Sequence record: OP617743.1
DNA: 64,000 bases
From: Klebsiella phage KP13-26
Strand: one strand, 5' to 3'
The notes under the pieces are model-generated. The model was given only the letters and a program-made list of their open reading frames with translations, was not told the DNA's origin and searched no databases. A program made the translations under genes and the position numbers. Of the stretch, positions 50,390 through 61,616 are shown piece by piece (position 1 is the stretch's first letter; the number at the start of each line of letters is the position of its first letter).

Positions 50390-50905
50390 CTACCGGTAAA
50401 ATTGATGTTCTTTATATCTATACACTAAAGTCATATCTTTTTCCCAATGAACACGAATACTTTTTTTCTTAAAATATTTTGCTCCTTTGGTAAAATCTGT
50501 AGCATCTCTGGCTTCAGGAAAATTACGATTTAAGTAAAGTAAACGGTCTGCAATATGTTTTGCTTCTTGCCATTTATCTTTTTCTACTACATTGAAAGCC
50601 CCTTTGTTGGTATAAGAAAACTGTCCGGGCTGGAACAGAACATCTTTTACAGTTTTAGGGAATTGTGGGTCATTAACGCGATTCAAGACCACATTGCCAA
50701 CCGCCGCCATTCCTTTTTTACCTTGGCCTCGGCTTTCGGCATACATCGCACAAGCTAAAAGATTTTCTTTCGTATCTCGCTTTGTACATTTGTGAACTAC
50801 TTTAGCGGTCTTTACGTTTGCAGCTTCGGCAATGCCGATTACAGGTGTAAATGTAAAAGCAGTTAATGATAGTAACGCAATTGTTACAAAGTTTCGTATT
50901 AGCAA
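50390..50905 (-). CDS. secreted cell-wall hydrolase (SleB / Hydrolase_2 family), a candidate endolysin
   Basis: Signal peptide with an AEA cleavage motif. NVVLNRVNDPQFPKTVKDVLFQPGQFSY is the SleB family signature. Confidence 0.6.
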   Translation of the reverse strand: MLIRNFVTIALLSLTAFTFTPVIGIAEAANVKTAKVVHKCTKRDTKENLLACAMYAESRGQGKKGMAAVGNVVLNRVNDPQFPKTVKDVLFQPGQFSYTNKGAFNVVEKDKWQEAKHIADRLLYLNRNFPEARDATDFTKGAKYFKKKSIRVHWEKDMTLVYRYKEHQFYR

Positions 50906-50991: not shown

Positions 50992-51618
50992 CTACAGCGT
51001 GAAAGTAGTAGTGAAATCCACTTTAGTTCCGTCTTCGTTCACGGTGAGTTTGAGATTATCACTCTGAATACTTTCCAAACTTTCCAGTTTAACAGTCACG
51101 CGCTCGTAAGCTGGTTGACTATCTTTCAGGAAGGTACGTTCCGTGGTCACTACACGACTTGCCACATCGAGCGTAGCTTTACCATCGTGCTCAAGATGAT
51201 AAGTGCTACCATCTTTATAATTAATAACAACGACGCCACCACTGATCACCAGATTCTCGCTGAGTGTAACGTTAGCTGACACAAGCAGAGAAACATTTTG
51301 GGCTTCTTTTTGAGCTGAAACAACAATCTCCTCAAACTCTTTTACTGTCAGCGCTTCATCATCACCCCAACTACCGTCGCTGAGGAAGGTATTACCATTA
51401 AGAATACCAAAATATCCCCAATTATTGGTAATGTAAACATCGTTTGCTGCGTCGGCCATCCAAGTATCGTGAAATGCTTCGTCAATACAGTAGTTGATGT
51501 TAAGATCCCGCGCTACTTTAAATAAATCAGTGACTTTTCGGCTATTATCCTCGTTAAAATCTACATTAACTGCAAAATTGCTGTTGAACAAATCTTTTAG
51601 TTTAGAAATTGCGCTCAT
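50992..51618 (-). CDS. hypothetical protein in the ter-like cluster
   Basis: 208-aa ORF with RBS aaaaggagaataaaATG. Confidence 0.35.
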   Translation of the reverse strand: MSAISKLKDLFNSNFAVNVDFNEDNSRKVTDLFKVARDLNINYCIDEAFHDTWMADAANDVYITNNWGYFGILNGNTFLSDGSWGDDEALTVKEFEEIVVSAQKEAQNVSLLVSANVTLSENLVISGGVVVINYKDGSTYHLEHDGKATLDVASRVVTTERTFLKDSQPAYERVTVKLESLESIQSDNLKLTVNEDGTKVDFTTTFTL

Positions 51619-51630
51619 TTTATTCTCCTT

Positions 51631-51663
51631 TTATTTATTAAAAATGGAGGGTTTTCACCCTCC
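51631..51663 (-). terminator. terminator-like hairpin after terD (ggagggtg-aaaa-ccctcc plus a U-rich tail on the minus strand)
   Basis: The minus strand reads ggagggtgaaaaccctccatttttaataaat. Confidence 0.4.
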
Positions 51664-51676
51664 AGTATGGTAATGA

Positions 51677-52279
51677 TTACGGGCATTCGTACCAAGTTTT
51701 ATCACCGCCGAATGCTACCACCACATCACAGATATCCATACCTGCTTTACCAACACCGTAGGCTTTCAGTTTCCACTCGCTGTCTTCACGAACGAGTGAA
51801 GCTACGTGGCAGATGGTGTTACCAGCAACTTCCGGTGCGAGGAAGTCAAAGTCCAGGATCTCAACGTTACGTTCTGCGTCGAAGATTTTCAGCATACCTT
51901 CGGAAGCATGACCGAGGCGCTTCTGACCAGTTTCATCGTCGATGGTGATGACGAATGCGATTTCATCTGCGTTCTGGGAGATTTTATCCAGAGTCACATC
52001 GATCTGCTCCAGGTTGCCAGTACCATCACGAACATCTTCGCCAGCGAAGGTTGAACGCTCTGGGTCAACTTTGTTGCCGTAGCAAACCAAGTGACGGGCA
52101 GACAACATTTCTGGATTACCGGAGGCGTTATGACGGCAGATTACCGCGCTAACATCCAGATCGAGCTTTGAGCTTGATTTCCATGAGAATTCCAGACGAA
52201 TCTCTTTCAGCAGGGGTGCGATCTTTTTCAGGGAAATCTTTTCGGTGGAACCTTTTTTCAGGGAAATTTTCTCAGACAT
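51677..52279 (-). CDS. terD: TerD-family protein
   Basis: MSEKISLKKGSTEKISLKK double motif. GWK/DLDVSAV segment. YGNKVDP...DVRDGTG...EQIDVTL matches TerD/TerZ/TerE. Start moved to ATG 52279, which has the RBS gaaggagaatat. Confidence 0.75.
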   Translation of the reverse strand: MSEKISLKKGSTEKISLKKIAPLLKEIRLEFSWKSSSKLDLDVSAVICRHNASGNPEMLSARHLVCYGNKVDPERSTFAGEDVRDGTGNLEQIDVTLDKISQNADEIAFVITIDDETGQKRLGHASEGMLKIFDAERNVEILDFDFLAPEVAGNTICHVASLVREDSEWKLKAYGVGKAGMDICDVVVAFGGDKTWYECP

Positions 52280-52378
52280 GTATATTCTCCTTCTTTCTGT
52301 TTTCATTATCGGGGAGAGCCACTCTCCCCTTCATGTAATCTATTCTACGTATTTCTTCTGGTAAGTCAACAACTATTT

Positions 52379-53173
52379 TTAGTTTTTTGCACCTACTTTC
52401 TCAACCCACTGACCAAATTCGTCAGACAGAAGTTTATCATACAGTTCTTCATCTGAGAGGTTAAGATCATCAACACCAATAAAATCTACGTTATCGTAAT
52501 CACGAGCGAGTTCTTTCAGGAAGCTAAAGCTTTCCTGACCTACACCCACCATAAACCAATAGATAGGTTTACCACGGTTACGAGAAAGCAGGCTACGCAC
52601 GGCTTCTTTATCGGAGTTGTCGCCATCTGTCTGAAAGAACACCATAGCGGGGGTTGTATCGACTGGCACAGAAGTATCTGGTACTTGTTCAGTGATAGTT
52701 TTCTTCACAGTTACAGTTTCGGTTTTGCCTGTCAGCTTAGCAAAGAAACCACTCACAGGACGTTTTTCTTGTACTTCGATTTCACGAGTAACAGTTTTCA
52801 TTGGAACATTACCAAAGTACTCATCGTAAATCTCTTGCATTACCGGAGCATAGGCTGTACCCCCGGAGATTGAAATACCACGCATACACTTGCCTACATA
52901 ATCATCATAGACAGACGCTGTTGCAGGAGGCAGCTCACGACAGCCGTGGTCAAACGCCCACATATCAATCTGAGCATTATCGTCAAATTGCATACCGAAC
53001 GGTAAGAGTTTACCTACAAAATCACTTACAGTACCATTACGATACAGGCTACCCATACTACCTGAGATATCCAGCGCAGATGCTACACGCAGGGTGATCT
53101 GTGCAATCTTTTTCTTTTTGAGGCTGATCACCAGTTTCTCTTGGCGTTTAACCAGACTAATTTTTTCGCTCAT
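52379..53173 (-). CDS. vWA-domain protein with a TerD-like N-terminal motif (TerY-like)
   Basis: Begins MSEKISLVK...VISLKKKK, then the MIDAS motif DISGSMGS with downstream GGTAY and TDGDNSD. Confidence 0.7.
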   Translation of the reverse strand: MSEKISLVKRQEKLVISLKKKKIAQITLRVASALDISGSMGSLYRNGTVSDFVGKLLPFGMQFDDNAQIDMWAFDHGCRELPPATASVYDDYVGKCMRGISISGGTAYAPVMQEIYDEYFGNVPMKTVTREIEVQEKRPVSGFFAKLTGKTETVTVKKTITEQVPDTSVPVDTTPAMVFFQTDGDNSDKEAVRSLLSRNRGKPIYWFMVGVGQESFSFLKELARDYDNVDFIGVDDLNLSDEELYDKLLSDEFGQWVEKVGAKN

Positions 53174-53323
53174 TCTTTATCTCCTTTTTCAACTTCTTTT
53201 AAGTCATCTGCACGGCGTGAATCGCGCCATGCAAACCATGTGTGAAACTTAAGTTCTTCTTTTTCTTCCTTTGTAAAGTAAGGTTTACTTTCATAAAAGC
53301 GTTCAAACCAAGTCAAAAATTCT

Positions 53324-53581
53324 TCACTCATTATTGCCCTCCATTAAGTTTTTAAGTGCAATAGTTGTTTCACACTCATCACCATATTCATTGTGATGTT
53401 CAAGATATGCCTCCGCAGAGGCCCAATCGTTATCTTGTGTATTCCAACCATCTATGAAAGCGTCTTCGATGATAGTCTTTAACTCAAGGCGTGTCAAGAC
53501 AATTTTATCATTCATCGGTGATATCCCACTCACAGTTGTCATCGAAACCACCAGGTGGGATAAAGTCGTCACCAACTTCAA
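53324..53581 (-). CDS. hypothetical protein
   Basis: Small acidic ORF. Confidence 0.25.
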   Translation of the reverse strand: MKLVTTLSHLVVSMTTVSGISPMNDKIVLTRLELKTIIEDAFIDGWNTQDNDWASAEAYLEHHNEYGDECETTIALKNLMEGNNE

Positions 53582-53729
53582 TCACTGTTGTACCTTCACT
53601 ACCACCGAACTCTTCGCAATAATCATCACTATACGCCAGTGCCTCGGCTAAGTCAAGGTCTTTAAACCAACGAAGACAAGAACTCCCATCTCCACAATCT
53701 TGAATAAGAATAGCTACTTTCATTAGCAC
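53508..53729 (-). CDS. hypothetical Cys-containing protein
   Basis: Small ORF overlapping its neighbours. Confidence 0.2.
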   Translation of the reverse strand: MLMKVAILIQDCGDGSSCLRWFKDLDLAEALAYSDDYCEEFGGSEGTTVIEVGDDFIPPGGFDDNCEWDITDE

Positions 53730-53923
53730 ACCTCCTCTAGGAGGATTTCTAGACCTGCTAACTGCTTTTCAGTGATAGGGTCATAAGAATATAAATGTCT
53801 CAAATCTGTGACCATTGAGATAAAACCCCTACCTAACCAAGATACTCCCATAGGCGCTACACGTAGTTCCTCATCATATCTCACTAAAATTGCATCTTTG
53901 TCTTTGTATACACGAATAAGCAT
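53723..53923 (-). CDS. hypothetical protein
   Basis: 66-aa ORF. Confidence 0.25.
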   Translation of the reverse strand: MLIRVYKDKDAILVRYDEELRVAPMGVSWLGRGFISMVTDLRHLYSYDPITEKQLAGLEILLEEVC

Positions 53924-53932
53924 GATTCCTCC

Positions 53933-55030
53933 TTAAACTAAACCAGCTTTGACTTTCTGTACCATCCCATCCTCCAGGGATTGTACTTCGTTGATGTAGT
54001 CAATACGGGCAGCACGCGCTTCAGTATTGATTCGGTTTGTTTCTTCCAGCATACGTACCAAGTTTTCCTGATCTTTACGCAGGGTTTCAATATCTAGGAT
54101 CTGACGGTTAGACAGAGCTGTAGCATTGATAATGTTTTGTGCAGCCAAATCACTTCCCATTTGAATTGCAGTATTGAATTCATCCAATACATTAGCTTGA
54201 GTTTGACCAGCTTCTGCCTGACGCAAACTCTCAATATACATTGAGAAGTTGGCAGAGTACGCTGGAATAACATTGTTCACGATGTTACGTGCAGAGCGCA
54301 TAAGCATTTCGCTTACTTTAATCATACTATTAACACGTGGCCCCATCTGGACACAAAGAAGACGCAGAGCTTTTAAATCAGCAATACGGATCTCTAAAAT
54401 GTCTAAAGTATCACGCACAGCTTGGCGTTCTTCGACCTGATCCTCTGGTAGCATATTGAAACGTGCTTCTTCTTTCTCATAGGTATCTGTCAAAAGTTCT
54501 ACATCCCGATTTAAACTTAATGCATATTGTCCAATAGCCATTTTAAGTTTTTCGAGATAAACAAGAGAATCTTCTTCTTTTCTAACATCACCTTCAAGTT
54601 CTTTGACAAGAACATCAATACGATTATTAATAGTATCGTACTCTGCAAACAGGTCTTCTTTCATACCCATCAATTTTTTGATGAATTTGCCAACACCTTT
54701 CGATTGTTTAATCGAGCTGGGGTCTAATTGTTTTGCTTGTTTAATAAGAGCGGTGAGACGTTCATTCATTTCTCCGCCCTGATTACCACGTTGATGTTTC
54801 AACACTTCATTGTTTAAACTACGTAGAGTTAATCCGGCCTCTGCACCCACATTATCAATTTCTTTACGAGTCATTGCCGGAAGTTCTGGAACAGGTTTTA
54901 CTACAGCAGGCGCATACACAGGGCTAGAATCAAAGACAGTTGGGGCTAATGCCGACCGTGTATCTTCTTTTGCAGCCAATGCACTCTTGCTTGGAGTTGT
55001 TTTAACAGCAGTTAAAAATGGACTAGACAT
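53933..55030 (-). CDS. TelA-like (toxic-anion-resistance family) helical protein, tentative
   Basis: 365-aa all-helical coiled-coil protein with RBS aaggaggcaacATG, located between the TerD/vWA and TerC genes. Confidence 0.4.
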   Translation of the reverse strand: MSSPFLTAVKTTPSKSALAAKEDTRSALAPTVFDSSPVYAPAVVKPVPELPAMTRKEIDNVGAEAGLTLRSLNNEVLKHQRGNQGGEMNERLTALIKQAKQLDPSSIKQSKGVGKFIKKLMGMKEDLFAEYDTINNRIDVLVKELEGDVRKEEDSLVYLEKLKMAIGQYALSLNRDVELLTDTYEKEEARFNMLPEDQVEERQAVRDTLDILEIRIADLKALRLLCVQMGPRVNSMIKVSEMLMRSARNIVNNVIPAYSANFSMYIESLRQAEAGQTQANVLDEFNTAIQMGSDLAAQNIINATALSNRQILDIETLRKDQENLVRMLEETNRINTEARAARIDYINEVQSLEDGMVQKVKAGLV

Positions 55031-55039
55031 GTTGCCTCC

Positions 55040-55618
55040 TTATTTTCTGTCTTCATAGTATGGAGAAATCCCCATAGCTTCACACTTCTTAAGCCATTCT
55101 TCCCAAGACAATAACCAAATTTTATCAATGGTTCCTTCCTTATCTTTACTAAGGTAGGTTCCCCACATTATACTATTAGGTTTTTGCCTAGAAGGACGGC
55201 GATTATACCCTCTGATAAATCTTAATTCGTTATCTGATATGAGAGCCATTACCCAAGGGTATTCTGTTTTAACAGAACGCTTTGATACAGCTTTAGGAAT
55301 AGCCCCTATTTCCTGCGCTATTGCTTTCCATGCAGCACCATGATCAGACCTACCTCTTTTACAAAAATCTATTGCATGGGCTATCTCATGTAGCATAGTA
55401 TCAACAATGTTATGCTCTTCCGAGTTTTTATGCAGATGCCAATTGATAATAACTAACTTACTTCTATTATCTGCCCAACCAAAGGATTTATTTCTTTTTT
55501 CTCTAACGCCTGCTCGCCATCCGTTGGCCTTTAGCAGGGCATCGTATTCAGGAAAGTCTTCTTTAAATTTACATAATGTAGTTTTCCATAAATTTAGAAT
55601 ATCCCTTGTACTATACAT
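55040..55618 (-). CDS. SprT-like zinc metalloprotease
   Basis: LVIINWHL...TMLHEIAHAIDF...HGAAWK, the SprT/HExxH-type motif. Confidence 0.6.
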   Translation of the reverse strand: MYSTRDILNLWKTTLCKFKEDFPEYDALLKANGWRAGVREKRNKSFGWADNRSKLVIINWHLHKNSEEHNIVDTMLHEIAHAIDFCKRGRSDHGAAWKAIAQEIGAIPKAVSKRSVKTEYPWVMALISDNELRFIRGYNRRPSRQKPNSIMWGTYLSKDKEGTIDKIWLLSWEEWLKKCEAMGISPYYEDRK

Positions 55619-55620
55619 TT

Positions 55621-56163
55621 TTATACCCTAACAGTCAATTCGGATAAAATGATCTCCATGCCCTCTTGTTGCCAGACCAAATAACCGTTATTAGTTAAAG
55701 ACATATCCAATAAAAATTGGTGATTAATCCCACGAACTTTAACTTCCACAACATCCTCATTGTACACAGTGATTGCATTACGGCTATTTACTGTATCCTT
55801 CCAAGTGTCTTCCATGATAAACACAGTTTTTTCAGGAGTGGCTTCAAGGGACACAAAGCCTTTTACAGTGTATGTTTCACCGCTCATGAACAGGATGGTT
55901 GCCTTGTTCACGCTTGGTGCTCTACGCGATGGGCCTTTCTTACGTTTAGAATGTTCTGGACGAAATGCTTTGATTGTAATTTCTCCGCTATCAATCATGT
56001 CTTGCGTGGCCCATTGAACAACACTAGTCTTCACGCCTCTAAACACCCAATCCCCATGATCGTCCGTATGATAGAATGTGAAAAGATTATTGTTATTCAT
56101 TAAGGCAGATTCAGCAAAGCCCTCTCCGCTTAGATGATAGATATTACCTTCAATAAAGTTCAT
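55621..56163 (-). CDS. hypothetical protein
   Basis: The track ORF runs to 56379. ATG 56163 has the strong RBS caaggagaaaatATG. Confidence 0.35.
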   Translation of the reverse strand: MNFIEGNIYHLSGEGFAESALMNNNNLFTFYHTDDHGDWVFRGVKTSVVQWATQDMIDSGEITIKAFRPEHSKRKKGPSRRAPSVNKATILFMSGETYTVKGFVSLEATPEKTVFIMEDTWKDTVNSRNAITVYNEDVVEVKVRGINHQFLLDMSLTNNGYLVWQQEGMEIILSELTVRV

Positions 56164-56233
56164 ATTTTCTCCTTGATTTATTTGTTTCTCTTGACAAGGG
56201 ACACTATGAAGCATCCCTAAGCAAAAGTCAACC

Positions 56234-56473
56234 TTACTGCGGAATGATTTCTTTAATTGCTGGCTCACGTCCTGCCAACTTACCGTTGAAGTCAATACAG
56301 AAGCTGTATTCAACACCGCTGGCATGTTCGAAAAGGAGTCTGTCATTCGGATCGTAGACGTAGATACCCTCTTCGTCAACTAGGACAATCTCCAGTTGAT
56401 CTTTATCTCCGTGTGCTGAAAAGTCTGTATCTACCATTACCGCGATATCACCTTTCTTTGCATTATTAAACAT
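56234..56473 (-). CDS. hypothetical protein
   Basis: 79-aa ORF with RBS aggaggaaacATG. Confidence 0.3.
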   Translation of the reverse strand: MFNNAKKGDIAVMVDTDFSAHGDKDQLEIVLVDEEGIYVYDPNDRLLFEHASGVEYSFCIDFNGKLAGREPAIKEIIPQ

Positions 56474-56485
56474 GTTTCCTCCTTA

Positions 56486-57049
56486 TTAGCGACGACGACT
56501 AGAGCTATAACTTTTACGGCTAGAAGAACTACTGTAGCTACGAGAAGAACTTAGTGGGCTAGAGTAGGATTTTTTAGTAGTATAACTACTGTTAGTATTC
56601 ATAGTAGGACGTGAATACGTTTGGGTGCTTGTTGAACGTGGTTGGCTTTGATACCCCTGTTTATTTGTTGAATAAGAGCTACGGCTATTTGAGGAGTAGC
56701 TACTGCGTGGTTGAGTCACAGTGTTGTTATTGATAATCGTGGTACGGCTAGAGTTATTGTTATAACCACCGCCATTGTTACCACCACCAGACATCATGTG
56801 ACCTAAAATCATACCTGTTGCAAAGTCTCCAACACCAGAATCATGACTGCCACTCTGCACGATAACAGGCGCAGGAGCAGACTGAATCACTTGTGGAGGT
56901 TGTTGGTTAACATACTGCTCATCCACTTGTTGTTGCTGCGGAGCAGGGATGTATTGGGTTTGCGCTGGAACATCGTCATCACATGCGCTCAGCATTGTAA
57001 CACCCAGGCCGATAATGATTGCACCGATCACCAGTTTAGTTTTGTTCAT
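56486..57049 (-). CDS. lipoprotein with a Q/P-rich and S/Y/N-rich disordered body
   Basis: Lipobox LSAC after a signal sequence, then low-complexity segments. Confidence 0.5.
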   Translation of the reverse strand: MNKTKLVIGAIIIGLGVTMLSACDDDVPAQTQYIPAPQQQQVDEQYVNQQPPQVIQSAPAPVIVQSGSHDSGVGDFATGMILGHMMSGGGNNGGGYNNNSSRTTIINNNTVTQPRSSYSSNSRSSYSTNKQGYQSQPRSTSTQTYSRPTMNTNSSYTTKKSYSSPLSSSRSYSSSSSRKSYSSSRRR

Positions 57050-57242
57050 GTTTTGTTTCCTCGCTTAAAGTGTTAATACATTGATTGTTATCTAACGAGT
57101 AGCAAAAAACTGGCTTCTCGTCTTTACTGATGCTAATACTACCACCGCTTACTACCGCTGTCAATGCTACAACTAAAATAAATAAACCTACACCGAAACA
57201 AATACTTTCGAACACAAACCACACTGCTTTCAGGATTTTCAC
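57036..57242 (-). CDS. small membrane protein
   Basis: Two hydrophobic helices. Confidence 0.3.
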   Translation of the reverse strand: MKILKAVWFVFESICFGVGLFILVVALTAVVSGGSISISKDEKPVFCYSLDNNQCINTLSEETKHEQN

Positions 57243-57459
57243 TGCTGTACTCCTTCGTTAATGCACTGACTATAGCGCAGATATAGATTATCATTACCTG
57301 CCTCAAAATTACGAATTTGCTGCGTACATTCTTGGTAAGTGAGGTGTGGGACAGTTAAATGTTCCGTACCTCCATTTGAGTTGGTTGCAATGCTCCAAAT
57401 CAGAATCAAAGTATACATGTTTCTCTCCTGTAGAAAGCCTCCCGAAGGAGGCTATTTCA

Positions 57460-58440
57460 TTAAGCTGTTGCTTCTTCTTTCTCAGGGAAGACCAGACTTG
57501 CCAGTACACCCAGCGCCAGAGTACCTAGTACGATATACAGACTTACGTTAGCTGAGATATCGTGCGGCATGAACGCCCACTTAGCATGTAACGCTTCACC
57601 AAACGGGTGATACATCAGTTTCGCACCTACAAATACCAGAACTACAGCTACTGCTTTCTCCAAGTGAACAAGATACTTAACCGCAACACTCAGCACGAAG
57701 AACAGAGCACGTAAACCCAGGATTGCGAAAAGCATCGCAGAATAGACCAGCAGAGGTTCTTGTGTCACACCGATCACCGCAGGTACAGAGTCGAAGGAGA
57801 AAATCACATCAGTGAATTCTACTACGAACACACACAGCAGCGCTGGAGTTGCATATTTGATACCATTTTTAATCGTGATGAACTTCTCACCATCTAGAGC
57901 CGGATGAACAGGAAGAATCTTACCAACCAGACGAGTCGCCCAGTGTTTAGAGTAATCAACTTCATCTTCCTCATCATCACCGCCTTTGATAATAGCTAGT
58001 GCAGACCACGCTACAATCAGACCGAATAACACCTGGAAAAACCAGTGTAAATTAAAGATTGCCGTACCTGCTGCTACAAAGATACCACGGAAGACGATGG
58101 CACCTGCGATACCCCAAAGCAGAATCTTATGCTGCAAGTGTGTCGATTTAATACCGAAGCTTGCGAAGATTGCCATAAATACCATCAGGTTATCCACCGA
58201 CAACGACTTCTCTAACACATACCCACTCAAGAATAGGGATGCAAATTCTTTGCCGTACTCAACCCAGATAAATGCATAGTAACCAAATGCTAGGGCAATC
58301 CAGAACACTGACCAGAGCAGCGCACTCTTAATACCGATTTCTTTATTTTCTTTATGTCCAAAGAAATCAACTACGATGGACAGTACCAGCACACCTACGA
58401 GCACAGCAATGTCCAACAGTGGGAATCCAAAATGGTGCAT
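57460..58440 (-). CDS. terC: TerC-family integral membrane protein
   Basis: Multi-pass membrane protein with the TerC signature EKSLSVDNLMVFMAIF. RBS aaaaaaggagataaacATG. Confidence 0.75.
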   Translation of the reverse strand: MHHFGFPLLDIAVLVGVLVLSIVVDFFGHKENKEIGIKSALLWSVFWIALAFGYYAFIWVEYGKEFASLFLSGYVLEKSLSVDNLMVFMAIFASFGIKSTHLQHKILLWGIAGAIVFRGIFVAAGTAIFNLHWFFQVLFGLIVAWSALAIIKGGDDEEDEVDYSKHWATRLVGKILPVHPALDGEKFITIKNGIKYATPALLCVFVVEFTDVIFSFDSVPAVIGVTQEPLLVYSAMLFAILGLRALFFVLSVAVKYLVHLEKAVAVVLVFVGAKLMYHPFGEALHAKWAFMPHDISANVSLYIVLGTLALGVLASLVFPEKEEATA

Positions 58441-58788: not shown

Positions 58789-58888
58789 CTCATTTCGTCT
58801 TGATGTAATGAAGTTTACGCTCTTCTTAGATTAAGTCAACAATTATTTTCAAAATAATTAAGCCTCCCGTAGGAGGCTCATGTTCCAA

Positions 58889-59109: not shown

Positions 59110-59571
59110 CTAATTTAATTTAAAAATAGTAACTTCTAGACCTTTGGCGACGAGTGTCTCCTGAATCATAGCTTCAACTACAGACCACTTTCCGCCAGCT
59201 AATCCACAACCAATGAGAGGGAGTCCTACTGTCTTCCCGCCACATGCAATTACATCATCACCCATTGCGTCCAATGCATCAAAGATAGCGTCATAGTCTA
59301 AGTCACGAATACCTGAATCACGTTTACTGTAGCCGTACTGTCCGTACAGATTGTAGACGGTGAATTCACCATCCTCTACAATAGCTTTCGTGAAGGTTCC
59401 CAGTTTCGTGCGATCACCTTTACGTGTTGCACAATCAGCAGCATACACTTCGGGCCATTCTTTTTTAATTTTTGGAGCTATACCACTGCCCATAGTGCAA
59501 AAACAATTACAGCAGTGGGCAATAGCATCCACTTCAGCTTGAAGCAGATCTCCGATTTTATACTTTAGCAT
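59110..59571 (-). CDS. macro-domain protein (ADP-ribose-binding or -processing)
   Basis: GDLLQAEVDAIAHCCNCFCTMGSGIAPKI and IGCGLAGG match the macro-domain Gly-rich motifs. Confidence 0.65.
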   Translation of the reverse strand: MLKYKIGDLLQAEVDAIAHCCNCFCTMGSGIAPKIKKEWPEVYAADCATRKGDRTKLGTFTKAIVEDGEFTVYNLYGQYGYSKRDSGIRDLDYDAIFDALDAMGDDVIACGGKTVGLPLIGCGLAGGKWSVVEAMIQETLVAKGLEVTIFKLN

Positions 59572-60121
59572 GTTTATCCATCCATTTCTCAGCTTTCAGT
59601 TTCAGCAGGTCGTTCAATTGCCCAATAACTTCGTCTGCCAGTTCTTGCCCATCCAGGTCACTTGTTTTCTTCTTGTGAACGAGAGCCAAATCCAAAGCAC
59701 AAATAATAACGTCGGCACATTCCCCTAAGAGGTCTTCCTTTTGCCGATCTGGATTCACAAGCCAATCTGCACACTCCCCTGTTTCAGCAGTAAGATATGC
59801 CATAACATCCATCACACCACGAGTCTTATTCACGTGTCGGCTTGCATAGACAGCCGTGGAAACATCTAATGTCATTTCAGGATAGTCTGAGTGTTTAGCC
59901 TCATCTTCTACCCAAAACATATCACGAGTACCCCCAACAATCGTAAAAGTAGGGTACGATAAGCCACAATCAATTTCTTCGGCTCTTACTCTAACTTTAC
60001 CATTCCCTGTAGCTTCTACTAGTTCCAGTACACGGATGTGATAACCCGCCCCAAAAGCAGCATCTTTGCTCTTAGCAATCCGCCCGATATCTTTTTGGGA
60101 AACACTTGTGATCTTTTCCAT
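59558..60121 (-). CDS. protein with a C-terminal MazG-like NTP-pyrophosphohydrolase domain
   Basis: TAETGECADWLV ... EDLLGECADVIICALDLA, an EExGE/D-type helical motif. Overlaps the macro gene by 14 nt. Confidence 0.4.
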   Translation of the reverse strand: MEKITSVSQKDIGRIAKSKDAAFGAGYHIRVLELVEATGNGKVRVRAEEIDCGLSYPTFTIVGGTRDMFWVEDEAKHSDYPEMTLDVSTAVYASRHVNKTRGVMDVMAYLTAETGECADWLVNPDRQKEDLLGECADVIICALDLALVHKKKTSDLDGQELADEVIGQLNDLLKLKAEKWMDKHAKV

Positions 60122-60130
60122 TAATACTCC

Positions 60131-60988
60131 TTACTTATTCAAAATATTACCTTCGAAGAAATGATGAAGAAACGCAAAGTTCTCTTCATATTTCTCAATT
60201 TTATTGTACCCTTCTGACAGACAACCGAAATATAACGCTTCAACGTAAGATAGTGGGAGTTGGCTCAGTGCTACCTTAAAGGTCACTTCTGGCTGGCTCA
60301 TTAGGTATTTGATTGGACGAACCAAACATTGGGCATCAGGCTCATCTTTAATCATCTGCACGAAAGCGGAAATAGTGTTAATGTCACTGAAATTCAGTGC
60401 CGCTTCTGTGTTGGCCTCAGTACCATTATACTTCGCGAAGTATAGGAAGAATGTGTCATTAGTTACATTCTCTGCATCTAAGATCTCAATGAGCTTGTCT
60501 TCGTGTGTTCCGGTAATATTTACATCATCAATGAAGATCAGGTTTTTGTTTCCCCAGAAATCTTTGTTGATCGAGAAAGTATCACCGTCAATCAGAGCTT
60601 TGCGGTCTTCCTTACTGAGGAAGCCATAATCATTGATATAACTCACCTTACGATGAATGATATCCCACTCTACAGCTTTGCCATGCGTACTGTTCACAGC
60701 TACCAAATGGTTAATATGGTCTACAAAATGCTCTGAGAGCAACGTAGCGGCGTTTTTAACGTAGTTATAGGGCGAAGGTATCACCACAAACTGACTATGT
60801 ACCAAACGGCTCCAGTGGGCCTCAAAGAAGCTTTCTGCAAGAATGCGCCCCATACGCTTAGCTGCTTGATTGCTACCAAACTTCAGCCGGGAATAATCCG
60901 CTGTATTGAAACCAGCATTTTCTAAGGTAGAAAAAGTATGGGCAAAGTGTTGAGTTTGATTACGCATTAATGATTTCTCCTTTTTCAA
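60131..60988 (-). CDS. phosphoribosyltransferase (PRTase type I fold)
   Basis: PRPP-binding motif NLIFIDDVNITGTHEDK. Confidence 0.55.
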   Translation of the reverse strand: MKKEKSLMRNQTQHFAHTFSTLENAGFNTADYSRLKFGSNQAAKRMGRILAESFFEAHWSRLVHSQFVVIPSPYNYVKNAATLLSEHFVDHINHLVAVNSTHGKAVEWDIIHRKVSYINDYGFLSKEDRKALIDGDTFSINKDFWGNKNLIFIDDVNITGTHEDKLIEILDAENVTNDTFFLYFAKYNGTEANTEAALNFSDINTISAFVQMIKDEPDAQCLVRPIKYLMSQPEVTFKVALSQLPLSYVEALYFGCLSEGYNKIEKYEENFAFLHHFFEGNILNK

Positions 60989-61616
60989 GTTTCTCTAGTA
61001 GGTCTTGTGGGTTTTTAACATGACAAAACTTAAACCCTAAATCAACACACTTCCCATCATAAATTTCACTGTCTCCAATATGCAAAATTTCATAGTTTGC
61101 TAGGCAAGATAGCTTACTAGAAAGCAGAGTTTTAGCAAAGAATAAAATGTCAGGTTTACAAAGCAGATGTTCGTCCGAGAAATGCATAAAACTCCACCAA
61201 GGCATTCTATCAAAGCCTACAGCCTGAGACAAGATTCTACCTGAGATAAAGTTAGTGTTGCTTTTGATACTCAGCTCATAATTATCATCAAGATTTATTA
61301 ATTGATCAACTAAATCCCCATTTAAGTGCGGAGGATTAGAAATAAAAGCCTGTTCACACATATATTGCATCTCAGCAATTGCTTTTAGTTCCATATTTAA
61401 ATTTTTACCTAAGACATGCCAAGCAGTAGAGGTAGAACCACAAATACCGTTCTCTGCTTCTTGATCTAAATATTTTTTAACTTTAAGGTACATCATATCA
61501 GCTTCTTTTGGTGAAACCCCTGCAAAGTAGGAGATAGCTTCTGTACGTTCATAAGCATAATACTTGTTTGCAGTGATCAGAGTGTTCCATACATCAAAAG
61601 AAATATGTTTAATCAT
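60960..61616 (-). CDS. HAD-superfamily hydrolase/phosphatase
   Basis: N-terminal motif I ISFDVWNTLI (DxD/WxT) at residues 5-14. Confidence 0.5.
   Translation of the reverse strand: MIKHISFDVWNTLITANKYYAYERTEAISYFAGVSPKEADMMYLKVKKYLDQEAENGICGSTSTAWHVLGKNLNMELKAIAEMQYMCEQAFISNPPHLNGDLVDQLINLDDNYELSIKSNTNFISGRILSQAVGFDRMPWWSFMHFSDEHLLCKPDILFFAKTLLSSKLSCLANYEILHIGDSEIYDGKCVDLGFKFCHVKNPQDLLEKLEKGEIINA

Follow-up and report, generated by a model that had tools for sequence, protein, structure and literature searches.

An abbreviated Ter gene set in Klebsiella phage KP13-26 and its Stephanstirmvirinae relatives

Ter gene clusters are linked to resistance against tellurite, colicins, and phages. We describe a Ter gene array of the Klebsiella phage KP13-26 (sequence record OP617743.1), carried on the minus strand of a stretch of 64,000 nucleotides that was analyzed as a whole; we call this stretch the window, and all positions refer to it. 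The array (50992-58440) encodes a TerD-family protein, a protein with a vWA domain, a TelA-family protein, and a TerC membrane protein. It is an abbreviated Ter system and a conserved feature of the phage subfamily Stephanstirmvirinae. The gene content is not new, since it has been annotated or published for close relatives. To this we add that the module is longer than first described, a predicted transcription architecture, an account of each component at the level of residues, and a mosaic history.

Two groups of cellular proteins provide the frame for comparison. The plasmid terZABCDEF genes (IncHI2 plasmid R478, Klebsiella plasmids), together with telA/klaA, have the TerD domain, the TerF-type vWA domain, and the TelA family in common with the phage; in plasmid TerF, however, the vWA domain is fused to a TerD domain, whereas the phage vWA protein stands alone. 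Escherichia coli Alx and Bacillus subtilis MeeF and MeeY have in common with the phage TerC the fold family, a layout of nine transmembrane segments, and five acidic residues. The phage terC lacks the yybP-ykoY riboswitch and a pH-responsive leader; a predicted promoter and then a simple hairpin stand there instead.

Ter genes are also described in other phages. A review by Iyer et al. (2021) covers such systems in jumbo "and certain other related smaller tailed phages" and proposes that they serve in competition with superinfecting phages (PMC7824862), and a Ter set is described in PhiPsa374 (Warring et al. 2022, PMC9796965). Jumbo and PhiPsa374-like phages resemble KP13-26 in the same four families (TerC, TerD, TerF-vWA, TelA), in being virulent, and in the rival-exclusion hypothesis that attaches to them; they belong to other phage lineages, however, with only 21-30% identity to the window for TelA and TerD. 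In Acinetobacter phage ME3, a phosphoribosyltransferase (PRTase) and HAD enzymes also lie alongside the Ter genes (PMC7824862), and terD genes are highly transcribed in gut jumbo phages (PMC12880540). Klebsiella phage phiKp34 (vB_KpM_FBKp34, hereafter FBKp34) carries a cluster of terC, terF-vWA, two terD genes, and telA (PMC8386662). It differs from the window in having two TerD proteins rather than one, and in having a PRTase-HAD pair downstream rather than upstream of the Ter genes.

Phage phi92 matches the window in both protein families and gene order (gp172, gp173, gp178, and gp182, plus gp186 and gp187). Its order is HAD, PRTase, macro-domain protein, TerC, a small gene, lipoprotein, gp179, TelA, small genes, vWA, TerD, gp171, and cell-wall hydrolase. 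Likewise, phAPEC8 is a Stephanstirmvirinae phage with the Ter gene set. Names in the databases vary: the record of Klebsiella phage KP2025 has "TerD-like protein", "VWA domain-containing protein", "toxic anion resistance protein", and "integral membrane protein"; that of phi92 has tellurium-resistance, stress, or toxic-anion-resistance proteins; and PHROGs labels the TelA family "tellurite resistance".

Composition and distribution of the phage Ter set

The window derives from a Klebsiella myovirus of about 150 kb, below jumbo-phage size, in the subfamily Stephanstirmvirinae. Relatives with published descriptions are called lytic. The interval 50992-58440 has 95.6% DNA identity to KP2025 (PP919962) and about 92% to phage phi1_175008. 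Every gene of the window from about 40.8 kb onward lies on the minus strand, DNA polymerase and glycosyltransferase genes among them; a cluster of 23 tRNA genes occupies 4207-12045 on the plus strand. The core genes, and an enzyme pair that we add to the module, are as follows.

51677..52279, minus strand: TerD-family protein with a degenerate Ca2+-binding motif (Pfam PF02342)
52379..53173, minus strand: stand-alone vWA protein of the TerF C-terminal type, with an intact metal-ion-dependent adhesion site (MIDAS) and a TerD-like N-terminal motif (Pfam PF10138)
53933..55030, minus strand: TelA-family protein, all-helical, with no transmembrane segment (Pfam PF05816)
57460..58440, minus strand: TerC/Alx-family integral membrane protein, probable divalent-metal (Mn2+) transporter (PF03741, TIGR03718)
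60131..60967, minus strand: PRTase_3, a ComF-like phosphoribosyltransferase (Pfam PF15610)
60960..61616, minus strand: HAD-superfamily hydrolase, upstream partner of PRTase_3 (TIGR02252, phrog_14393)

The original prediction, made from the sequence alone, had named four minus-strand open reading frames as TerD, vWA, TelA, and TerC proteins. All four frames are present where it placed them, and profile searches set every one of the proteins inside the TerD, vWA-TerF, TelA, or TerC family, the opposite of the outcome that would have refuted the prediction. The Pfam scores are four to five times as high as the gathering thresholds, and the matches span nearly the whole profiles. The Pfam scan covered the proteins of the array and its neighbors within 47.8-63.9 kb. 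One boundary shifts: the longest TerD frame has indeed the predicted 209 amino acids (to 52306), but a 200-amino-acid start at 52279 is favored by orthologues and by the ribosome-binding site.

We surveyed 50,697 phage records by tblastn and found TelA in 203, TerC in 174, and TerD in 151. The matching records are mostly Stephanstirmvirinae (64-88% identity); the rest, at 21-50%, include jumbo phages of Caulobacter and Brevundimonas. More than 130 phage records, phi92 included, carry the set in synteny. Among the matches are several records named "Campylobacter phage" (e.g., MG065689, MG065645, and MG065656; about 146 kb), whose Ter gene scores are identical to those of Escherichia Justusliebigvirus phages; the host label of these records looks doubtful.

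The Ter genes are under strong purifying selection. The ratio of nonsynonymous to synonymous divergence (dN/dS) is 0.01-0.04 against phi1_175008 (0.012 for the vWA gene, 0.014 for terC, 0.018 for telA, and 0.040 for terD) and 0.10-0.19 against phi92. Close relatives of TelA are confined to phage-like contigs down to 44% identity, and the next match stands at 25%. With no relative above 25% identity beyond phage-like contigs, TelA represents an old phage lineage rather than a recent host capture. For the set as a whole, this points to a phage-lineage-specific group of genes and away from a recent capture of host resistance genes.

The history of the components is mosaic. Between KP13-26 and FBKp34, TerC has 95% amino acid identity, whereas the vWA protein has 40%, TerD 28%, and TelA 23%; the soluble Ter parts were therefore replaced or evolved separately from TerC. 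A second discontinuity is seen at terD: its synonymous divergence (dS) from phi1_175008 is about 1.9, against 0.13-0.27 for the flanking vWA, TelA, SprT, lipoprotein, and TerC genes. With this local jump and a predicted promoter and terminator of its own, terD (51677-52369) looks like a separately exchanged cassette, and cassette exchange fits the pattern of divergence.

The component proteins and the enzyme pair

TerC belongs to its family by both profiles tried: 6.3e-41 and 140.5 bits against PF03741 (cut-off 27.8), and 320 bits against the NCBIfam model TIGR03718 TerC/Alx (cut-off 246.4). It has nine hydrophobic segments, as a multi-pass membrane protein should; its identity is about 48% to the TerC proteins of ter loci on plasmids and 33% to E. 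coli Alx. Mn2+ export by Alx requires E86, D92, E213, D216, and D222 (PMC10197570). The corresponding phage residues, E77, D83, E208, D211, and D217, align with these five acidic positions, which are invariant across the phage protein, phi92, and Alx. The phage TerC is thus a probable divalent-metal (Mn2+) transporter. No yybP-ykoY Mn2+ riboswitch or other Rfam RNA was found before terC, either across the whole window at the gathering score or within 50-60 kb at E<=1; this leader is a regulatory trait of many cellular TerC/Alx members, not a family requirement.

TerD matches PF02342 at 3e-28 and 99 bits (cut-off 25.3; profile 3-178 of 187), and it matches the solved TerD structures 2KXT, from Klebsiella pneumoniae, at 3.9e-15, and 3IBZ. 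Its Ca2+ site is altered. The segment that reads GDNRTGEGDGDDE in 2KXT reads GED-VRDGTGNLE in the phage protein; the DD pair and several other acidic residues are gone, and D82, G86, and E91 are the invariant positions of this region among phage TerDs. The phage protein thus departs from the canonical motif GDN(R/L)TG(E/A)GDGDDE of K. pneumoniae TerD, which is reportedly due to Pan et al. (2011) and is visible in the 2KXT sequence. Membership of the TerD family stands all the same, because bacterial TerD paralogues that bind no metal are reported to exist (Anantharaman et al. 2012).

The vWA protein matches the Pfam vWA-TerF-like family PF10138 at 1.3e-41 and 143 bits (cut-off 29.4), the profile match being split by an insertion of about 30 amino acids relative to the homologues in FBKp34 and in a metagenomic contig. 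In an alignment of four distant stand-alone vWA-TerF proteins, the MIDAS residues are invariant (D35-I-S37-G38-S39, T106, and D183), and so are K4, L7, K9, and K20 at the N-terminus. The original prediction had called this protein TerY-like. The vWA assignment holds, but TerY does not: Pfam places the domain in the TerF C-terminal type and PADLOC gives no match. We also rejected membership of a TerY-P triad, as neither a Ser/Thr kinase nor a PP2C phosphatase domain was found by Pfam in the array and neighbor proteins scanned.

An N-terminal motif common to TerD and the vWA protein had also been predicted, and it is real. Stand-alone vWA-TerF and TerD proteins have in common the conserved pattern (K)-I/L-S-L-x-K ... 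S-L-x-K; L7, K9, and K19 are invariant among seven aligned phage TerDs, and even between distant members of the two families L7, K9, and K19/K20 do not vary. The motif could be the remnant of a TerF-like fusion of TerD and vWA, or a docking peptide common to the two.

TelA matches PF05816 at 6.7e-34 and 118 bits (cut-off 30; profile 13-330 of 332) and has no hydrophobic segment. Structure prediction with AlphaFold2 gave an all-helical model, as the description of a helical TelA-like protein had led one to expect; it gave no specific structural analogue. Sequence searches of solved structures with TelA, TerC, and the vWA protein returned nothing meaningful.

The module extends beyond 50992-58440, with a PRTase-HAD pair about 2 kb upstream of terC. 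PRTase_3 matches PF15610 at 1.4e-40 and 139.8 bits (cut-off 28.7; profile 8-264 of 264), its start at 60967 being set by the phi92 orthologue gp186 (79% identical). The HAD protein has a weak NCBIfam match (TIGR02252, 1.2e-6) and a match to phrog_14393 "hydrolase" at 4e-86. It retains the nucleophilic Asp and motifs II-IV: its catalytic motifs (D8, S119/N120, K154, and G181-D182...D187) are invariant in six distant orthologues. So is W10 of motif I (FDVWNT), which stands at Asp+2, the general-acid position in phosphatases; with Trp there, phosphatase activity is uncertain, and the enzyme may not act as an ordinary phosphatase.

In the comparative genomics of Iyer et al., PRTases and HAD phosphoesterases form part of the biosynthesis arm of Ter systems (PMC7824862). 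In the window, in phi92 (gp187/gp186), and in FBKp34 (gp141/gp142), the HAD gene is the immediate upstream neighbor of PRTase_3. The adjacency recurs in all three of the distant metagenomic phage-like contigs that we compared (L005, L007, and L009; PRTase about 50% identical), and in two of them (L005 and L009) TerD and vWA-TerF lie within 10 kb of the pair. PRTase_3 occurs in 156 of the surveyed phage records, largely the TerD- and TelA-carrying groups. In FBKp34 the pair sits on the opposite side of the Ter genes, and the linkage has therefore survived rearrangement. Between the pair and terC (59110-60121) lie genes for a macro-domain protein (Pfam 7e-06) and a MazG-like pyrophosphatase (phrog_1247, 2e-21); phi92 has a longer macro-domain protein, gp185, at the matching place. 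These genes may be tied to a nucleoside-like metabolite arm.

Transcription signals and accompanying genes

The array had been predicted to be a single operon, a reading that we reject: internal promoters and terminators are predicted within the co-directional genes, which argues for several transcription units rather than one. The candidate signals, all on the minus strand, are these.

58812..58880, minus strand: terminator-like hairpin (58880-58859), then a sigma70-like promoter (58839-58812); upstream boundary of the terC-containing unit
58515-58488, minus strand: terC promoter, sigma70-like, TTGACA-16-TAACAT (pattern match)
58479-58459, minus strand: 8-bp GC-rich hairpin before the terC ribosome-binding site, AGAGGGAG/CTCCCTCT (fold -14.8 kcal/mol)
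57453-57436, minus strand: GC-rich hairpin immediately past the terC stop; its T-tail is poor, which makes it a weak terminator candidate (hairpin scan)
52369-52342, minus strand: terD promoter, sigma70-like, TTGACT-16-TAGAAT (pattern match)
52329-52311, minus strand: 8-bp GC-rich hairpin upstream of terD, GGGGAGAG/CTCTCCCC (fold -16.4 kcal/mol)
51664-51645, minus strand: intrinsic terminator-like hairpin and T-run directly after terD (hairpin scan)
about 50985-50965, minus strand: further predicted terminator, after the 208-amino-acid gene (hairpin scan)

Judged by these signals, the array is probably made up of several transcription units, with terD close to monocistronic. The predicted promoters, near-consensus before terC and terD, suggest early transcription by the host RNA polymerase. 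A literature search for Stephanstirmvirinae transcriptome data returned nothing relevant.

Hairpins of the form GGGAG...CTCCC are enriched: the window holds 6, against about 0.15 expected, and two of the six are the terC and terD leader sites, which count as leader elements only if the predicted promoters are used. They could be RNA stabilizers or the binding site of a regulator. In phi92 the layout of promoter and hairpin before terC is kept with a different stem sequence, and terD is preceded by a near-consensus promoter with no equivalent hairpin. The terD gene of FBKp34 likewise follows a near-consensus promoter, one that its record annotates.

Four further genes belong to the array.

56486..57049, minus strand: low-complexity lipoprotein (lipobox LSAC, phrog_21570)
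55621..56163, minus strand: 180-amino-acid protein, 39% identical over 119 amino acids to the ends of phi92 gp179
55040..55618, minus strand: SprT-like zinc metalloprotease with HEIAH (Pfam PF10263, 1e-11)
50992..51618, minus strand: 208-amino-acid conserved protein of the phi92 gp171 family, downstream of terD (homology to gp171)

A SprT-like protease and an odd low-complexity lipoprotein had been noted between the Ter genes, and both assignments are borne out by the Pfam match with HEIAH and by the lipobox. The lipoprotein has one N-terminal hydrophobic segment, low-complexity stretches rich in Gln and in Ser/Tyr/Asn, and a glycine-rich core that is conserved, GVGDFATGMILGHMMSGG; phi92 gp180 is its syntenic counterpart, at 44% identity. 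A 68-amino-acid protein with a single transmembrane segment (57036-57242) overlaps the start of its gene. The SprT-like gene is present in close Klebsiella-phage relatives, but phi92 has no counterpart between gp179 and TelA; because the phi92 array lacks it, it is probably not a core Ter component, and we rejected it as one. The 180-amino-acid protein has no Pfam match, and the 208-amino-acid protein is not recognizably a Ter protein. Directly downstream of the array (50390-50905) lies a SleB-type cell-wall hydrolase (Hydrolase_2, 4e-22) with an N-terminal signal-like hydrophobic segment; it is labeled endolysin in phi1_175008.

Possible roles during infection

As the most likely role, we propose that the phage encodes a membrane-associated, metal-linked Ter complex that shields the infected cell from additional damage to its envelope, and we give this reading a probability of roughly 0.45. 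It builds on the family assignments, the intact transport and MIDAS residues, the purifying selection, the gene order kept in phi92, the linkage to PRTase-HAD, and the predicted promoters. The Ter genes would be expressed early via the host RNA polymerase. TerC, in the inner membrane, would move a divalent cation, most likely Mn2+, while TerD, the vWA protein, and TelA would come together at its cytoplasmic side; a nucleoside-like ligand for these three proteins may be the product of the PRTase-HAD pair. During the latent period, the complex would condition the envelope of the infected cell against insults such as DNA entry by superinfecting phages, pore-forming colicins, and membrane-depolarizing effectors of abortive infection. 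Phenotypes of this kind, phage inhibition and colicin resistance, are reported for plasmid ter clusters. The original prediction had suggested superinfection exclusion or manipulation of envelope or metal-stress signaling, in agreement with the hypothesis in print for phage Ter systems (PMC7824862).

Several observations weigh against this proposal. The literature searched yielded no experiment on any phage Ter protein, so that the earlier description of the set as functionally unexplored is still fair. For TerC proteins, the evidence now favors Mn2+ export or metal chaperoning over a barrier function (PMC10550928, PMC10197570). Because its Ca2+ motif is degenerate, the phage TerD may differ from bacterial TerD in the metal-sensing step, and, as the TelA model has no specific analogue, a role for TelA as a sub-membrane scaffold is conjecture. 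Promoter-like matches in the region are not above chance (48 found, 43.5 expected); the proposed timing therefore depends on the position and quality of the sites only. The array is also smaller than the "whole set" first announced: it has one TerD-domain protein, and Pfam found no TerB, TerZ, TerA, or TerE among the proteins of 47.8-63.9 kb. TerW was likewise not found alongside the phage Ter genes. Finally, PADLOC, a library of models for known and candidate anti-phage defenses, matched none of ten proteins.

Part of the same evidence can be read in terms of metal homeostasis. The genes would then be auxiliary: TerC would export Mn2+ (or Zn2+ or Ca2+) or metalate Sec-translocated proteins, with TerD and the vWA protein as cation-binding regulators, and the set would serve to adjust metal supply in the infected cell to the needs of phage enzymes or of phage proteins that are secreted, rather than to exclude competitors. 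The five residues of Mn2+ export by Alx are kept in the phage TerC (PMC10197570), TerC proteins of B. subtilis metalate exported enzymes (PMC10550928), and terC of K. pneumoniae contributes to zinc resistance (PMC12054061). TerC is moreover the most conserved part of the set in the FBKp34 comparison, where it adjoins genes for a BFD-like ferredoxin and an anaerobic ribonucleotide reductase, and the KP13-26 array includes a cell-wall hydrolase with a signal peptide as well as a lipoprotein. The SleB-type hydrolase family is not known to need Mn, however, and the Rfam searches before terC found no metal-sensing RNA. The Ca2+ site of TerD is degenerate, and TelA and the linkage to PRTase-HAD are left unexplained; on balance we hold this account to be doubtful, though with a real claim to attention. 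In a further reading, the array is a minimal, self-contained Ter signaling system of a strictly lytic phage: PRTase_3 and the atypical HAD enzyme (Trp at Asp+2) would produce a nucleoside-like ligand, which TerD, its Ca2+ site remodeled, and the vWA protein would sense via their N-terminal motif so as to gate TerC and TelA at the membrane, excluding rival phages or blunting membrane-targeting effectors of abortive infection. This too we think rather unlikely.

The remaining explanations fare worse. Divergent phage TerD, vWA, and TelA proteins could join and poison a phage-inhibiting Ter complex of the host, as counter-defense by mimicry. Host Ter clusters do inhibit phages (Whelan 1995, cited in PMC8386662). 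Ter loci are common on Klebsiella plasmids, with terC in 1054 Klebsiella plasmid records, and the soluble phage parts diverge strongly from cellular ones (2KXT at 3.9e-15 with a degenerate Ca2+ motif; nearest TelA that is not phage-like at 25%). Yet relatives isolated on E. coli K-12, which is not known to carry a ter operon, have kept the same genes; TerC, which is intact and has its transport residues, would be superfluous in a decoy, and all parts are under strong purifying selection, so that we consider mimicry improbable. Still harder to sustain is a resistance "moron" that would protect the host from tellurite or another xenobiotic, for instance during pseudolysogeny: database labels read "tellurite resistance" or "moron", and xenobiotic resistance during pseudolysogeny is raised as possible by Iyer et al. 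(PMC7824862), but published relatives are described as lytic, TerB, TerZ, TerA, and TerE are missing, and the authors of the PhiPsa374 study judged tellurium resistance unlikely for an incomplete set (PMC9796965). Decaying passenger genes without function would account for the degenerate Ca2+ motif of TerD and for nothing else. Intact reading frames, synteny across more than 130 genomes, and the retained catalytic and transport residues all speak against decay, and the dN/dS values of 0.01-0.19 effectively refute it.

With one TerD, vWA, TelA, and TerC plus the PRTase-HAD pair, the compact phage version would be a convenient minimal system for genetics and biochemistry. Were the minimal-signaling account true, a phage module of about 10 kb would be the simplest experimental handle on the Ter mechanism. 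For phage therapy, the recurrent label "tellurite resistance" may raise needless safety flags.

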